This document shows positions 34-12,700 of a stretch of 27,790 bases of DNA, piece after piece (positions within the stretch are counted from its first letter, which is position 1; each line of letters opens with the position of its first letter). Location: the IMG/VR virus record IMGVR_UViG_3300027373_000195, positions 1-27,790 of that record. One strand, written 5' to 3'. This DNA comes from a virus (Duplodnaviria > Caudoviricetes). The translations under genes and the position numbers were made by a program. The notes beneath the pieces were generated by a model. The model saw nothing but the letters and a program-made list of their open reading frames with translations. It was not told the origin of the DNA and made no database searches.

Positions 34-770
34 GGCCCATCCCCGCCCGCCAGGACCTCGGCGAGATGGCGGACCCGGATGGGCAGATTTCTCCGCGCCA
101 GCCGGCCGCGGATCTGCATCAGGCAGCTGACATCGCCGCCCACCACGGTGTCGGCGCCGCTGGTGAGAATATGCTCGATCTTGGCGTCGACCATGGCCAG
201 GCTGATCTCCGGGTAGCCGACGCTGAAGGTGCCACCAAAGCCGCAACAGCTGTCGGACTGGTCCATCTCCACCAGGTCCAGTCCCCGCACCCGACGGAGC
301 AACTGGCGGGGCTGGTCGCGGATCCCCAGGGTCCGCACCAGATGGCAGGAGTCATGGTAGGTGGCCCGGGCCGGGAAGACCGCGCCGAGCTCGGTGACTC
401 CGAGGACATCGACCAGGTATTGGCTGAACTCATAGGTCCGCTGCCCCAGAGCCAGGGCGCGGGCCAACAGGAGCGGATCATCGGCCAGGAGTTCGGGGTA
501 GTGGTGGCGGACCATGGCCACGCAGGAACCGGAGGGGCAGACAATGACCGAAGCCCCGGCAAAGACGGTAAGGAAGTGCCGGGCCGCGGCCGCCGCCTCG
601 CGCCGATAGCCGCTATTGAAGGCCGGCTGCCCGCAGCAGGTCTGGCCTTCGGCATAGGCCAGGGGGATGGCGAGCCGATCAAAAATGCTGACCAGGGCGT
701 CTCCCACCTCGGGAAAGCAGGCATCCACCAGACAGGGAATGAACAGGGAGACAGTGGTCGGTTGGGCCAT
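30..770 (-). CDS. lutA: LutA/LldE/YkgE family Fe-S (CCG-domain) L-lactate utilisation protein
   Basis: Motifs LFIPCLVD, QTCCGQPAFNSG, CPSGSC, YHDSCH, CCGFGGTFS, GGDVSCLMQI. ATG at 770 with AGGA upstream preferred over the TTG at 794. Confidence 0.9.
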   Translation of the reverse strand: MAQPTTVSLFIPCLVDACFPEVGDALVSIFDRLAIPLAYAEGQTCCGQPAFNSGYRREAAAAARHFLTVFAGASVIVCPSGSCVAMVRHHYPELLADDPLLLARALALGQRTYEFSQYLVDVLGVTELGAVFPARATYHDSCHLVRTLGIRDQPRQLLRRVRGLDLVEMDQSDSCCGFGGTFSVGYPEISLAMVDAKIEHILTSGADTVVGGDVSCLMQIRGRLARRNLPIRVRHLAEVLAGGDGP

Positions 771-1098
771 GGAAGATCCTGGAAGGGTGGACAATAAAGA
801 TCGGGGGCCGGCGCCCGGCCAAATTCGAGACCGGGCACGGATCTTTTATACCACCCCTTCCCCTTGGCCAAAAGAAAAACCTTGCCGGCCGCACCCAGGA
901 TTCCTGGTCTTCGTCGGTACCATGGATGGCTACTGCCCCAGTGCTTGGCGACCAGGGGCAAACGCTCTGGGCAGTCGCTGATTTTTTGCCGGGGCGAGGC
1001 GGTCCTTGCCCGCTTTATCGTTTCTTTGATCATACAAGATCCCGATGTGCCGCAGCTTTCATCGTCCAACCTGTACTCAAAATAAATTTTGTCTAAAT

Positions 1099-4944: not shown

Positions 4945-5706
4945 CTAATTGCTGATTAAAAGCTCCTTCCGCACCTGGGACCGACTCCCTTCCTTTTTGC
5001 TCATCGAGTATTTCAGCTCGACCTCTTCGATTAAAAACCTCTCAAATATTTTTCGCACCTCGGGTGTCTCGTTGAGGGTCATCAAGAACCGGCCTTTGAC
5101 GTTGGCCAACACCCCTGCCAGATCGTAGAAATCCTGCTCCACGAAATTATGCTCGTAGCCGTTGATCTTCCAATATGGAGGGTCGAGGAAAAACAGGGTG
5201 TAGTCCCGATCGTAGCGGGGGATCAGGTCGCGGAAGTCGAGACACTCGATCATTACATGAGATAGCCGGATCCAGGCTTCCTCCAGTAACCGCTGCAGGG
5301 TGAAGAGATTGAGTCGGGGAATACCCGTGGTTGAAGTTCCGAAGACCCGACCGCGACTACGCCCGCCGAAGCACATCCGCTGGAGATAGATATAGCGAGC
5401 GGCCCGCTGGATGTCGGTCAATGTGTCGGGATCGACCTGCATCAGCCGGTTGAATTCGTCCCTGGAGACTAGAGTAAATTTAAACTGGCGATGCAGTTCC
5501 TCGGGATGATGCTTGACTGTCCGGTAGAGGGTGATCAGATCGCGGTCGAGATCATTTATCACCTCGGTGCCCCTGGCCTCCTTGGCGAAAAAGACATTGG
5601 CCGCGCCGGCGAACACCTCGACATAACACTGGTGCGCCGGGAATTTTGAGATGATGGTTTTAGCGAGGCGGCTCTTGCCGCCAAAATAGGGTATCAATGA
5701 TGCCAC
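4945..5706 (-). CDS. D12-class (Dam-like) N6-adenine DNA methyltransferase at the mom position
   Basis: N-terminal IPYFGGKSRLA, motif I YVEVFAGAANVF, INDLD, catalytic FFLDPPY. GTG start with AAGGAG 6 nt upstream. Confidence 0.92.
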   Translation of the reverse strand: MASLIPYFGGKSRLAKTIISKFPAHQCYVEVFAGAANVFFAKEARGTEVINDLDRDLITLYRTVKHHPEELHRQFKFTLVSRDEFNRLMQVDPDTLTDIQRAARYIYLQRMCFGGRSRGRVFGTSTTGIPRLNLFTLQRLLEEAWIRLSHVMIECLDFRDLIPRYDRDYTLFFLDPPYWKINGYEHNFVEQDFYDLAGVLANVKGRFLMTLNETPEVRKIFERFLIEEVELKYSMSKKEGSRSQVRKELLISN

Positions 5707-5745
5707 GAAAGGCTCCTTGCGGTAATGCAGGTGATATGCTACTAA

Positions 5746-5862
5746 CCCCGTGCGCTGTCCTCAGCGTGCATCGGGGCTATAGCAGGTGAACCTGCGGACC
5801 TCCTTCCGTGTTAGCGCACGGTTAGATGGTTCGGGGAGGGGTGCAACCCTCCCCAGTCCCGT
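5746..5862 (+). ncRNA. Candidate structured (cloverleaf) antisense or leader RNA upstream of the methyltransferase
   Basis: Closing stem CGGGGCT/AGTCCCG with three arms and an alternative 5' hairpin. G-U pairs favour the plus strand. Possible extended -10 TGaTATGCT at 5732-5740. Confidence 0.6.
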
Positions 5863-5869
5863 CCTAAGA

Positions 5870-6391
5870 TTATGGGGGAGGGAGTTGAAAAGTAGGCATT
5901 TCGGCCATTACCTCTTCTACCGTTGGCAAGGGCCTGGAACCGGCCAGCACCTCCTGCTCAATCTCAAAAGACTTTTTCCAGCAAGCGGCCGCCCAGTCGG
6001 CGAGGGGTGTCGCTTCTGGTAGCCGCCCCTCGTATATCCCTAAATTATAGATTGAGTCGTAACGATACTTCTTTGCCTCCTCGTTGAGCATCGTTTGGAT
6101 GGCCACACCGCACTCTTCTTGTCTTTGGATGCCGAGACGGATTTGCTGATCAGTCTGCCAAGATTGATACTTCTCTTGATCGATAACCACCCACTCCCCG
6201 CCTATCCACCCCCATGCCCCACCTACGAAGTCTGGATTATCTGGCACTATCTCGACATGGTGCGTGTCGGGCATGATATCTAAGGCCCGGAGAGCACCGG
6301 TGAGTCCCCTTTCGGTGACATTAAGCCTGCAGTCGGCTGGGCGGAGGAAAGCGACCCGGCCCGTGGCGGTTTCAATAACTGCTTTCATCAT
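5870..6391 (-). CDS. Tail fibre-associated (assembly chaperone-like) protein, 173 aa
   Basis: ATG at 6391 overlaps the fibre stop. C-terminal pattern AKKYRYDSI...WAAACW...VLAGSRPLPTVEEVMAEMP resembles proteins found after phage fibre genes. The longer ORF-track start (6595) lies inside the fibre gene. Confidence 0.65.
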   Translation of the reverse strand: MMKAVIETATGRVAFLRPADCRLNVTERGLTGALRALDIMPDTHHVEIVPDNPDFVGGAWGWIGGEWVVIDQEKYQSWQTDQQIRLGIQRQEECGVAIQTMLNEEAKKYRYDSIYNLGIYEGRLPEATPLADWAAACWKKSFEIEQEVLAGSRPLPTVEEVMAEMPTFQLPPP

Positions 6392-8631
6392 AATGCGTTC
6401 CCTAACACTAACAGTTTGTTTGAGGCCAGGGCGACACCGCAAATCCTTGACCCTGCTTGCCCGAGGTCTCCATAATCGTCGATGTAATAGGTCATGCCGG
6501 TTGTCAGGCCCGACAATGCGGAGCAGATGCCGCCCCTGATCGTCACGAGGCCCTGGGCTCCGTTGGCTATCGCGGCGTTTGCAATGCCGATCCATTTGTC
6601 GGCGTTGGTGACAATTTCGCCGGTGTCGACCACTCTGGTCATGCCATAAAAAGAGTTTCCCCCATCCTGATAGGCGATAACTGCCCTGTCCGTATAGCCG
6701 CTATACCCGCAGGTAGGGTATTGGGTTTGCGATGAGTTGAAGTAAACCAAGTCTCCAATTACCAAGGTTGAGCCGGAAACGTAGCACAAGGCGGCTATTC
6801 CGTATTGTGCTACGTCTTTTCCGCATATCAGAACTTTTCCCTTCCCGGCGTCCCAGCAGGCGCTAAAGGCCCCATAGTAAAACGTAGATGATACCGACAC
6901 GCTGCCAAGCATCGACACCACTCTTGCCGCCGTCGATGCCAGGTACCAGGTGGTCGAATTCGTCGCACAAAGGATAAACCTGTCATTGGTCTGGTCGTAA
7001 GCAAGAGTGTCGAAATAAGCAGCTGACGCGACTATCTGCACACCTGTGCCGACATACATGCTTGCACCGTTTGCCTCAACAACCCAGGCCTTGGCTTTGT
7101 ATCCGTTATCATAAGTGGTTAGCAAAAGATACGGAGTGCCTGCCTTCTCCTGCAACCCACAGACAAACGGGGCAGTTAAGCTTACCGCAATGTTTATAGC
7201 GGTGTTCCAAGTTACTGTCTCCCCGCTGATCGTTGCTGACCTAATTGAAATCACGGTACTGCCAACGCAGTACCCAAATATGATTTTGTTCTGGTGTTGG
7301 TTGTAGACCATCGCCATGCCATAAGTCGACGGGACAGAAGCGGTCCCGCCGGCCACCGCAGTTCCCAGCGATAAAGAAGTCCCGGTTATTGTGCCGATAA
7401 CGAGATACATACTAGAGGAGATGAATCCGATTACCAGCTTGCCCTCACCTTCATGCCACGCCATTCTGGCGGAGTCAGAGTATGGAAAAGGAACAGGCGT
7501 ACCCATGGTGACAGTGCCTGCCACCGGGTCAACGGTTCCGACCGCGACATAGTCTGAGTACATCACGACGATCTTGTCGGTGCCCGGAATAGGAAGCACC
7601 TTGTCGTAGTAAAGCACCGATGAGGCGACTTGCACCTGCTCACTGCCCATCGCTCCGGCATTTGTCGTCGATCCTACCGTGCTGATTGTCTCATCACTAT
7701 TCAGCACTACCACGTCACCGACAGCGATGGCCCCACTGGCCGTGAAAGTCGCCTTCCCTGAAACCATTTCGGCGCGCACAAAGGCAGTGGTGGCTATCTG
7801 AATGTTGTTGGTCCCCTCTGCCGGCGTCGGTGCCGTGGGGCCGCCGATGAACGCCGGGGAGGCAAGAGAGGCTTTTGCGGCCAGAGCGTTGGTGATATTA
7901 GTGGCGAAGTTTGTGTCATCGCCCAGAGCAGCGGCCAGCTCGTCAAGCGTGTCAAGAGCAGCCGGCGATGACGCGACTAAGTTCGCTACTGCCGTGGAGA
8001 CGAAAGCGGTGGTGGCGATCTGAGTAGTGTTTGTGCCCGCAGCAGCAGTTGGCGAGGTCGGGGTGCCCGTAAGCTCCGGGCTGACAAGAGAAGGAGCGGT
8101 AGCAAACACAAGCGGGCCGCTTCCGGTTTCGTCGGTGATGGCGGCGGCCAGTTGGGCTGAGGTGGCGAGTAGGGTGTTGTTGGACAGGTCGATGGTCTTG
8201 TCGGTCAGGGTTTGGTTGCCGCCCGGAGTGACAAATTGGGCAGGGTCAACCGCCGCGGTCATGCTGATGCTCCACTCGGCATAAGTTCCCGTGCCGACAG
8301 CACTGTACACAGCCACCACCAGCGCCCCGGTGGCAACATTGTAGCTGGTCACGGTTCCAAGCATACGCATGGTCGGGACCGTGGTGTAGGCAACTACGAG
8401 ATCCATGCCTGGGGTGTAGCCGAGATTTGGCTCGACCATCAGCGATTGTTCCCCCTCCTCGAGGGATAGCGATGAGGTGCTTGAGCCGCGCATCCCAAGC
8501 GCGAAGGCAGACCCGGTCTCGTTGAGCGCTTGGGTCCAGGGGTTGAGATTGCCGACCAATTTCTCCATCTTGGGATTGAAGTTGTCAGGGTCAAGCACGG
8601 AGGGGATATCTTCAAAAAGCGGAATCGGCAT
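6388..8631 (-). CDS. Tail fibre / receptor-binding protein, 747 aa
   Basis: Start MPIPLFED at 8631 (TAATG overlap). Contains fibre shaft motifs QTLTDKTI, two copies of SP..xG.PT.PT...GTN..QIATTAFV, and SSPAALDTLDELAAALGDD, then a beta-rich C-terminal half. Confidence 0.85.
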   Translation of the reverse strand: MPIPLFEDIPSVLDPDNFNPKMEKLVGNLNPWTQALNETGSAFALGMRGSSTSSLSLEEGEQSLMVEPNLGYTPGMDLVVAYTTVPTMRMLGTVTSYNVATGALVVAVYSAVGTGTYAEWSISMTAAVDPAQFVTPGGNQTLTDKTIDLSNNTLLATSAQLAAAITDETGSGPLVFATAPSLVSPELTGTPTSPTAAAGTNTTQIATTAFVSTAVANLVASSPAALDTLDELAAALGDDTNFATNITNALAAKASLASPAFIGGPTAPTPAEGTNNIQIATTAFVRAEMVSGKATFTASGAIAVGDVVVLNSDETISTVGSTTNAGAMGSEQVQVASSVLYYDKVLPIPGTDKIVVMYSDYVAVGTVDPVAGTVTMGTPVPFPYSDSARMAWHEGEGKLVIGFISSSMYLVIGTITGTSLSLGTAVAGGTASVPSTYGMAMVYNQHQNKIIFGYCVGSTVISIRSATISGETVTWNTAINIAVSLTAPFVCGLQEKAGTPYLLLTTYDNGYKAKAWVVEANGASMYVGTGVQIVASAAYFDTLAYDQTNDRFILCATNSTTWYLASTAARVVSMLGSVSVSSTFYYGAFSACWDAGKGKVLICGKDVAQYGIAALCYVSGSTLVIGDLVYFNSSQTQYPTCGYSGYTDRAVIAYQDGGNSFYGMTRVVDTGEIVTNADKWIGIANAAIANGAQGLVTIRGGICSALSGLTTGMTYYIDDYGDLGQAGSRICGVALASNKLLVLGNAL
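7775..8085 (-). repeat. Two diverged copies of the tail-fibre shaft repeat
   Basis: SPELTGTPTSPTAAAGTNTTQIATTAFV and SPAFIGGPTAPTPAEGTNNIQIATTAFV; coordinates approximate. Confidence 0.8.
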
Positions 8632-9719: not shown

Positions 9720-12700
9720 GCGGCTGCCTCTGTCCGCACAGCCCTGCCGCCCCTGGTGACCTTAACCAACACGTCCTCGGTTGATTCGGCCGTTTTTCGC
9801 AGCTTCTCAAGTTCTGTCCTCATTCCTCGCAGTAATGCATTGGTTTCGGCCCGCTCGGAGCGCTCCAAGTCCACAAAAGGCTTAGGCGTAATGGTCTCTC
9901 CGGCGTGTGCGTAGATTGGACCGTCATGGAGCATATAGTTGGTCCCGGTGGCGTAGCCTCTGAGCCGCATGGTGGCAATATCAGCTCCGATCGCGCCGTT
10001 GCGAATCGCCGAAAACAGGGTCGAGCCGGAAAATCCGGAGTCCATCCAGTACTGCTCTCCCGCCTGGTCTGCATCGCGACCGAATAGGACCTGGTAAATG
10101 GCATCAATGGCTGAGGGTGTCGCGGCTGCAGGAACCGCAGCATTGCCGCCTAAACTTATGTCGTTGACCACGGTGGTGAGGCTGGCAAGGGCTGCACCGG
10201 TCAGGCCAAGCTGGCCGGCCAGTGATCCGGCTACCTCCTGCACGGTGTTGAACGACACTCCGAGGTTCGATGCGGCATCTTCGTTGCCCATTAGGGTGGC
10301 AGCAAGCAGTGAGGATGCCGCTGTCGACCCGCCAAGTGACCTGACCAACAGGGTCGCCGCGGTATCCGCTCCGACAAAGGATGCCTCGACCGACTCGGCG
10401 GCTCCGCCTGCGCCGACGAACTGATCGGCCAATCTGTCCGCATCGATCCCAGAGAACGCATCACCTAGCGTCACCGCGATAATGCCAGTGTCCCCGAAAA
10501 TATCGGCTAGGCCTAGCGATTCGAGCGTGGTTGACGCCATCCCCTCCCGGAGAGATTCGACCTGATCCCTTGTGATGCCAAGCATTCCGGATAGCACCCC
10601 CACCTGGTCGCCAGCGGATCCGAAAAGAGCATCCAAAGTGGCAAGGGAGTCGACCGGCGAATTGAGACCGTCAAGCAACGCCTGGGCGGCGTCGGTAGTC
10701 AAGCCGAACTGAGTAGTCAAAATGAAGGTGTCGCTGGTCAATCCGGTCAGCCTGAGTTTGAAGATGTCGGCCTCGGCACCGGTGAGCCCAAGTGTGGCGG
10801 CGAGGGCCGTGGCCGATGTGCCCGGCAGTCCCAGCAGCACCGCCAAAACACCGGCTGACCGGGCCGGATCACTGAGGCCCAAGGCCAGGGCCTCTGCTGC
10901 CGTGCCGGTCAGGCCGAGGGCTGCGGCGATCGCTGCGGCTGCGCCATCCGTGGTATTCACAGAGCCGACAATGGAGGTTAAAAAATCGTCTGTGGCCACC
11001 TCAAACGCGTCGAGATTGGCGATTAATTGCTCGATCTCGGTGGAGGTATCAAACGTGAGACCCTTGGTCAACTCCAGCGCCACCTGGTATTCGGCCTGGG
11101 CTTGGGTATTGGCGGCCACGGCCTCGTTGTACGCCGTGGTGAGACCAGTGACCGAATCAGCGGCGATCACCAGGGTCCGGTCGGTATTGGCACCGGCCTC
11201 AAGGGCCAGCTGCAGATACTCGGCAACCTTGGCATTGGCTGCGTCCAGGGCGGCCTGAGCCTGCTCCATGGGACTGGCTATGGAGGTCGCGGCCTCATCG
11301 GCCCCGGGAGTGATGGCCGAGCGCACCATGAGTAATTGCTGGCGAACAAAGGCCTCGGCCCTGGCATATTCCACCGCGCTGGTGCTGGTCTGCTCCGCTC
11401 GGTTGAGCACGGCCTGGGCTTGGGTAAGGAGCTTGGTCTGGGCATCGGCGTCGCCGGCGGCGGCAGCCGAAGAGGTAACCATCAGCTGGTCTTTGAGGTT
11501 GGCCAAACTGGCGGTGCTTGACGTGGACGGGTCGATGATTGCGAGGAAATCGTCAATGGTTGCGGCAAAGGCCCGGAGGTTGTCGGCGGCCTCCTTGATC
11601 AGGGCGTTGACCTCTTCTTGGGCGGCCAGTTGCTCGTCCTGGGCGGCCCACAGGCCGGCGCTGATATTGTCCCGGGCCGTGGCCACGACGGCCTCGGCGG
11701 CGCTGGCACGGTCGGCAAACGCCTGCACCTGGTCGGCGATGGTTTTCAGGATGCCGGTGACCTTCTCGCCGGCGGTGGCCAGTTCGGCGCGGGCGAGATC
11801 CCTTTGCTGCTCGACCACCTTTTTCAAGGCGATTGCCCTGGCCTCCTCCAGCTGGGTGTATTTTGCCATATCCACACCGGCGGTCTTCAGGGCCTCGGAG
11901 TAGCCATCAAACTGGAGGTTGATGGACCGGATAGCCAGCTCGTATTCGCTCAACCCGTTGGTGTCGATGATCTCCTGGATAGGCTCCATGGCCTGCCCGA
12001 TCTGGGCGATGATGTCCGAGACGCTGGAGATGGCAGCGGTCCCTGCCTCGATGTCGCCGCCTTTGATCTGGAGCGCAGCGGCGGAGAATGCCTCTTCTAT
12101 GTTCGCCTGCACCTGGTCCGTGAGCATTGCCCACGCGGCGGTGTCCTCCAGCAGGCCGCCGGCCCCCTTCAGGGAGACAAAATCACCAAGGGCGTGGGAA
12201 TAGACCTCGCTCACTTTTGCGTCGAGCCCTTTGGCATAAGCCTCGGCAATCTGCTTCAGCGCGGTTTCAGCGTCCTTGGCTTTCCACTCGCCTTCCGAGG
12301 CTTTGGCCAGGATAGCGGTCATATCAGTAGACGCCAACTCGGCCATCATCTGATCCCGCATCTCTGCCGGAAGCGTCGCCGTAAACTCTTTCAGCGTCTC
12401 GTCGAATGAGTCCTGGATCGTGGCCACGGTCGAACTATAGGCCGACAGGATGGGGTGATACCACTGGGCGGTCTCGTTGAAGTTAGGGTCGTAGACATGA
12501 GCCTCGGGGACAAACCCTTTGCCTGCGGTGTAATGGGAGTTCTCGGCGGCTACCGACTGCGGGACGCCAAAATCGTCTTCTTTCTCCTTAAACATCGACC
12601 CCATGATGCTGGAGCCGGCGATTGCCCCGAGAGCCGCGCCTATAACCCCTCCTACAGCGGTTCCAACGCCTGGCCAGATATACGTCCCAATCGCCGCCCC

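Follow-up and report, generated by a model that had tools for sequence, protein, structure and literature searches.

Genomic context

The window, the whole stretch of DNA analyzed here, is a 27.8-kb virus record that consists mostly of the minus-strand late region of a Mu-like prophage. Matches to PHROG families identify the Mu-like late genes, which include terminase, portal, head, tape measure and tail fiber. The last gene of the prophage stands at the mom position, with Mu-type head and tail genes upstream, and encodes a D12-class (Dam-like) methyltransferase whose gene faces a histidine kinase of the host (Table 1). Because the nearest named relatives sit in genomes of Desulfobulbus, Desulfocapsa and Desulfobulbaceae, the host probably belongs to the order of these bacteria.

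Dam-like orphan methyltransferases are common in phages, and 466 phage records match the family found here. Such enzymes need to be kept silent in the lysogen, although many occur without Com. Mom and other prophage methyltransferases, which belong to other enzyme families, are described as harmful or silent in the host in the available parts of PMC3299994 and PMC5778455.

An intergenic gap of 163 bp (5707-5869) separates the stop codon of the upstream gene (5870) from the GTG of the methyltransferase (5706), and an ORF scan of this gap found no Com-like reading frame of at least 20 aa. The upstream gene varies among relatives. Neither it nor the overlapping ORFs at the left end of the window (66-1069) matched a Pfam or PHROG family.

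Table 1. Features of the methyltransferase locus, with window coordinates
Feature	Position	Strand	Basis
D12-class (Dam-like) N6-adenine DNA methyltransferase, 253 aa, GTG start	4945..5706	-	PF02086 E 5e-28; phrog_56 E 6e-81
Translation start region: SD AAGGAG 5718-5713, GTG 5706-5704	5704..5718	-	predicted closed by local hairpin; opening energy 8.8 kcal/mol
Predicted sigma70-type promoter of the antisense RNA	5717..5745	+	-35 TTGCGG 5717-5722, 17-base spacer, TG 5737-5738, -10 TACTAA 5740-5745
Promoter spacer as read on the mRNA, predicted partner of arm 1	5727..5742	-	5795-5790/5727-5732, 5784-5779/5737-5742
5' hairpin of the antisense RNA, just past the predicted start (~5751-5753)	5750..5769	+	fold; lineage-variable
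Four-way junction core, 90 bases: 7-bp closing stem and arms 1-3	5772..5861	+	fold, covariation
Arm-2 strand of the mRNA, 9 bp complementary to 5704-5712 (spacer and start codon); predicted alternative lock	5802..5810	-	forced fold
Conserved TCCT tail at abrupt cassette edge, without CCA or U tract	5862..5865	+	TCCT in 36/59 homologs
Late gene without known family, stop codon abutting the cassette; likely source of read-through mRNA	5870..6392	-	start inferred from overlap with tail fiber stop

Structure and strand of the RNA element

A sequence-only reading had described a cloverleaf RNA in this gap. Its stems were found where they had been placed, with a closing stem at 5772-5778/5855-5861, arm 1 at 5782-5795, arm 2 at 5796-5832 (loop 5811-5816) and arm 3 at 5833-5854. 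The gap does have the length given in that reading, which took it to be almost fully paired; pairing is confined to about 5750-5861, and 5707-5745 is occupied by the Shine-Dalgarno sequence (SD) and the predicted promoter. The 5' hairpin at 5750-5769 was missing from that description. In the window fold, the closing stem stacks on arm 3 within a four-way junction that carries a 5' leader.

The plus-strand fold of 5732-5880 has an energy of -72.8 kcal/mol (z -4.25; 1 of 200 shuffles as good) and the minus-strand fold one of -64.6 kcal/mol (z -3.90; 0 of 200). Because both strands out-fold their shuffles, the window sequence alone hardly fixes the strand, and homologs are needed. Among these the consensus fold energy is -42.6 for the plus strand and -32.2 for the minus strand, and the plus strand folds lower in 20 of the 22 representatives that could be parsed (of 24). 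The sequence-only reading had taken G-U pairs as the mark of the plus strand, and the homologs agree: 53 G-U against 5 A-C were counted among 495 pair cells, and 94 against 21 in a second count. From the G-U excess and the consensus energy the RNA is most likely plus-strand, and we consider it very probable that such an RNA is produced.

Homologs, conservation and covariation

A four-arm covariance model built from 16 sequences matched 36 of the 38 loci with at least 59% protein identity; each match is antisense to the D12 start and lies at a constant distance from it. The 36 include 15 training sequences and some duplicates. The two loci that it missed are L012, with a 5'-truncated gene, and L018, with a deletion. 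Among 80 metagenome loci the model found 47 more matches at E < 0.001, many of them duplicating viral loci, and 59 non-identical four-arm loci were retained for the counts that follow. A scan that started from the RNA, over 151 genomes of the order, yielded 16 matches in 15 genomes, two of them at already known loci, and 15 of the 16 lie at a D12 start.

All 15 aligned viral relatives retain the element, and past 5865 their sequences diverge abruptly. Contigs from four public runs, three of which are flagged as probably DNA, likewise change to dissimilar sequence at 5864-5865. The element thus forms a cassette with a sharp end at 5865.

Covariation upstream of homologous methylases, which had been named as a check, is present. 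Eight of 31 pairs change on both sides in a MAFFT alignment. When 38 non-training sequences were fitted to the model, which leans such an alignment towards its own structure, 21 of 31 pairs covaried and 96% of cells were paired, compared with 36-49% in slid controls. The covariation exceeded 500 of 500 shuffles and every slid control. The conservation of the element is strong and its fold is real. The earlier proposal that a folded plus-strand RNA lies antisense to the methyltransferase leader, and probably has a regulatory role, is supported.

In the consensus the closing-stem pairs are invariant and a pyrimidine internal loop is conserved. Two loops diverge at 0.69 and 0.56, against 0.42 at four-fold sites, among 18 close relatives (one gene of which is frameshifted). 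Such fast change is as expected of recognition loops, though the mutability of hairpins would give the same. The element combines conserved stems with variable loops, a feature of cis-antisense regulatory RNAs. Between the otherwise near-identical phages L013 (2351-2372) and L014, the arm 3 loop is inverted.

It is most improbable that the cassette acts solely as DNA, as a cruciform or recombination site with no role for an RNA. Its sharp edge and the L013/L014 loop inversion would suit such an element, but promoter-like conservation, strand-biased wobble pairs and the covariation with translation starts described below, those of com included, argue against it.

Several loci depart from the common arrangement. 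In L018 (2275-2500) the leader has apparently been fused by a deletion to what is left of the upstream gene; no four-way core remains, the TA of the -10 reads TG, and the fused ORF stops one base before the ATG of a full-length methyltransferase gene. Because L018 has lost the core and the -10 TA and yet keeps the enzyme gene intact, the RNA appears not to be indispensable, on this one case. L218 (G140:C24:21547-21657) is a partial copy with arms 2 and 3 and the tail, without promoter or methyltransferase. The 5'-truncated gene of L012 (2501-3127) is a second methyltransferase copy in the record of L008 and has no cassette. Genes for tRNA near the methyltransferase in L075 (2485-2558) and L215 (2594-2666) are perhaps integration sites.

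A three-arm form and its relation to com

Loci with 41-50% protein identity share the same plan, with a four-base junction replacing arm 1. A model of this three-arm form matched 22 of 37 non-training distant loci at E < 1e-6. It also matched 7 of 19 four-arm loci (E 0.012-0.16), over their full length and at the corresponding place. In a 2-kb search the window scored E 0.069. The four-arm model gave 5 weak matches among 46 distant loci. These weak scores, together with shared position, strand and plan, make common descent of the two forms likely. The three-arm model had no match in 151 genomes of the host phylum, under strict filters and in a search run without a positive control. L215 (G042:C9:92121-92246), a four-arm RNA with a shortened arm 1 beside an apparently frameshifted methyltransferase of the distant subfamily, links the two forms.

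In KS9, VP882, KP12, Mae-JY22 and Aval the three-arm form sits immediately ahead of the methylase; in B3, Bise, TJ1 and L076/L077 it lies ahead of com. The sequence-only reading had cast the RNA as a regulator substituting for Com, which does not agree with the likely related form standing upstream of com in the latter phages. Because this form precedes com, com would be an optional insert behind the RNA in some phages.

Annotation around these elements is uneven. Bise has an unannotated Com-like ORF (L200:480-660) and a hypothetical protein of TJ1 is Com-like (L195:523-678). Two annotations that overlap the RNA element, B3ORF46 (L194:409-489) and the extended start of Aval gp44 (L201:221-700), may be spurious. 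In phage Bise a reverse transcriptase gene ends just before the cassette (L200:1-277).

Predicted antisense promoter and transcript ends

The predicted -35 hexamer overlaps the methyltransferase SD. A TG-n-TA motif is conserved among the homologs at 30-37 bases from the start codon, together with TT at 17-base spacing. TG precedes the -10 hexamer in 56 of 59, the first two -35 positions are T and T in 52 and 58 of 59, and TTG at 16-18 spacing occurs in 33 of 59, all counted with TA as the search anchor. The last T of the -10 is present in only 15 of the 59 four-arm homologs and is also missing from the window. In the three-arm form, for which the anchors were partly hand-picked, position 2 of the -10 is A in 30 of 30 and position 6 is T in 29 of 30. 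The -10 proposed previously, TGaTATGCT, occurs in only a few close relatives; the conserved candidate is TG-C-TACTAA (5737-5745), five bases off. A consensus scan of the window found neither a promoter nor a terminator. In L016 (~2450-2466) eight bases of the predicted -10 region are duplicated in tandem.

Because the predicted start lies at ~5752, the antisense RNA would not cover the SD or the start codon. At the other end, the tails listed for the 59 homologs are TCCT (36), ACCT (6) and TTTT (5), none of them CCA. A U tract (at least 5 T in 8 bases) ends the element in 11 of 59 relatives.

Control at the level of transcription alone, in which an opposing promoter and its transcript would block or end read-through while the folds merely stabilize RNA and leader, appears improbable. 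The promoter does face the incoming late transcript and overlaps the SD, and the U-tract ends of some relatives (11/59) would fit, but this account leaves the arm 1/spacer and arm 2/start covariation, presented below, unexplained.

Other candidate signals were rejected. The TA of a second, sense-strand -10 inside arm 1 is not conserved, and the spacing does not fit a Sigma54 promoter. A leader peptide from the minus-strand ATG at 5771 lacks its ATG in L011, L015 and L020. The plus-strand ORF 5786-6022 has no family and extends into unconserved sequence.

Comparison with known RNA families and systems

No Rfam family matched at the element in the window or in 20 distant loci, and 15 further loci gave nothing but weak chance matches to microRNA and frameshift families. 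The leader, used as a DNA query, matched no named phage. A literature search found no description of the family, although the supplement of PMC5737381 and the alignments of PMC10690425 may hold the motif. The latter source (Fremin et al. 2023) lists, in its available parts, DNAVirus_549, an 85-base motif of 9 sequences near Dam/D12 genes with a deltaproteobacterial host label. By that description, rather than by alignment, DNAVirus_549 could be the family of the element.

Resemblance to tRNA had also been suggested. ARAGORN predicted no tRNA gene, RF00005 gave no match, TTCRA is present in 3 of 59 homologs, and the tRNA-Ala-like start, an 11-mer, recurs in only 11 of 59. The closing-stem G-U of the window is A-U in 31 of 38 model-fitted sequences. 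That the RNA is a tRNA mimic processed by RNase P in the manner of P1 C4 is very unlikely: the four-way junction, the 7-bp closing stem stacked on arm 3 and the 5' leader recall one, but the absence of any tRNA or C4 match, the rarity of TTCRA, the lack of CCA among the tails listed, the A-U in place of G-U and the solely three-armed wider family all oppose it.

In the C4 antisense RNA of P1 and P7 (RF01695), according to the available text of PMC5320573, three stems branch from a closing stem and the specificity loops vary; the element resembles this phage RNA in both respects. Membership in C4 was not borne out: RF01695 gave no match at E <= 10, and the element has no CCA-type tail and is encoded opposite its predicted target. 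C4, by contrast, shares the strand of its targets.

The D12-methyl motif (RF02950, 64 positions) is named for the gene family that the element adjoins (15/16). Membership had been raised here too, but the only match of RF02950 in the window is at 10175 (E 1.28), away from the element, and none exceeded the cut-off at the element in five named phages.

SymR (RF01809) is a type I antitoxin RNA, cis-antisense to the 5' end of the tightly repressed symE (available parts of PMC1891008). The likeness to SymR noted in the sequence-only reading gained weak support. RF01809 had no match in the window, but E. coli symR was the best match of the three-arm model in the 801-base symE region, on the same strand (10.1 bits, E 0.0055), a rough value for a region chosen beforehand; the four-arm model matched a hairpin only (E 0.63). 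Both RNAs are cis-antisense to the 5' end of the target gene, and the arm 2 hairpin tip is the same save one base. In contrast to the element, whose predicted start lies upstream of SD and start codon, SymR has its promoter inside the ORF and covers both. The element also differs in its multiway junction, its methyltransferase (PF02086) target and its lack of an Rfam match.

In Mu, mom is controlled by Com and a translation inhibition structure, as given in the available parts of PMC6483171 and PMC3299994. On that account the locus is alike in being the last operon of a Mu-like phage, with a DNA-modification gene whose GUG start is predicted to be hidden in mRNA structure. It is unlike Mu in that the window has neither com nor mom, the enzyme is of the D12 class, and in B3, Bise and TJ1 com is not replaced but has the three-arm form in front of it. 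Neither model matched the gin-com-mom region of Mu. In the features tested here the element is not tRNA-like; it is not a Com substitute, and it is not in Rfam.

Predicted long-range pairings in the mRNA leader

In the mRNA-sense fold of the window, arm 1 is predicted to pair with the promoter spacer at probabilities of 0.99-1.0. Pairing was compared across 24 four-arm representatives of less than 80% identity (L153 and L155 left out because their -10 was mis-picked) by permutation tests of own against cross pairing, which ignore phylogeny. For arm 1 and spacer, own pairing beat cross pairing in 22 of 24 lineages (-16.8 vs -14.2 kcal/mol, p 1e-4), with p 0.19 and 0.23 for two control segments. 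The same segments taken as a direct repeat performed more weakly than as an inverted one (16/24, p 0.04), and the helix has no strand bias (11 vs 13). If the antisense RNA starts at ~5752, both halves of this helix are present in the mRNA only.

A second pairing joins arm 2 with the start region. The window fold forced to contain it has an energy of -75.6 kcal/mol, 4.3 above the minimum of -79.9, and the duplex itself reaches -19.4 kcal/mol against a cross mean of -13.9 (L002, an identical relative). Among four-arm loci this covariation was seen in 10 of 24 (p 0.016), driven by four lineages including that of the window; covariation of the anti-SD with the SD (12/24, p 0.16) was not significant.

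The pairings were clearer in 30 three-arm representatives (4 of 37 loci, in which no start was found, were dropped). Arm 2 covaried with the start region, com starts included, in 24 of 30 (p 1e-4), the junction with the -10 in 20 of 30 (p 1e-4), and the -10 complement with the start region in 20 of 30 (p 0.003; control pairing p 0.65).

A trans-acting role, in which the RNA would bind a protein and might for instance inhibit the methyltransferase or Com, is quite improbable. The invariant closing-stem pairs, the conserved pyrimidine internal loop, the plus-specific G-U pairs and the tight linkage to one enzyme family would be in keeping with such binding, but the loops are hypervariable and even invertible (L013 vs L014), and the sequence covaries with the mRNA start region.

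Proposed regulation of the methyltransferase

Covariation of arm 1 with the spacer, an added finding of this work, and of arm 2 with the start region in the three-arm form (22/24 and 24/30) points to a switchable mRNA leader and a repressing antisense RNA. Our preferred reading, held with moderate confidence, is that a cis-antisense RNA of ~115 bases, from a predicted sigma70-type promoter over the RBS, likely represses the methyltransferase via a switchable leader on late read-through mRNA. The joint loss of the core and the -10 TA in L018, a single case, agrees with this reading. The class is a known one, that of cis-antisense RNAs with structured leaders.

In newly made mRNA the spacer/-10 segment would be held by arm 1, or by the junction in three-arm relatives; if unheld, it could pair with the start region. 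The antisense RNA would leave SD and start codon uncovered; its binding would free the spacer/-10 segment, and the start would stay shut even once the duplex is cut. Arm 2 may serve as a slower second lock on the start codon. In the lysogen a constitutive antisense promoter would keep the enzyme off, aided by collision with read-through transcription. The late lytic burst of transcription would outrun the antisense RNA, and phage DNA would be methylated against restriction. With loops that change fast, the pairing would be phage-specific. If this is correct, an RNA cassette before methylases, and before com where present, would explain silencing in the lysogen and extend the com paradigm by a layer of RNA control.

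The opposite sign, with the antisense RNA as an activator, seems unlikely. Here arm 2 of the free leader would hide the start codon, which the RNA would expose by taking arm 2 away, a functional version of an RNA in place of Com. The arm 2/start covariation of three-arm lineages would fit this account, and in L013 the match is perfect over 13 bp. Folding by itself leaves the sign unfixed. Simulated antisense binding made the start harder to open in 23 and easier in 17 of the 59 four-arm loci, close kin of the window being among the eased ones, and harder in 7 and easier in 14 of the 30 three-arm loci. Against activation, binding also frees the second covarying anti-start segment, a predicted constitutive promoter would mean an active enzyme in the lysogen, the element is found before com as well, and the window itself shows no gain, its opening energy being hardly altered (8.8 vs 9.6).

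A broader extension of the repression reading is more tentative, and we regard it as possible rather than probable. The element would represent a widespread RNA family, absent from Rfam and distantly akin to SymR, that gates phage anti-restriction methylases and com without contacting the RBS. One 30-base stretch would serve as promoter, as mRNA anti-start segment and as partner of arm 1, the freed promoter copy would silence at a distance, and hypervariable loops would define phage-specific groups.

A minor feature of the leader concerns arm 2, which on the mRNA strand (5796-5805) has a strong SD-like run with no start codon behind it. The SD of symE sits in the hairpin that aligns to arm 2, and the SD-like run could be a relic.
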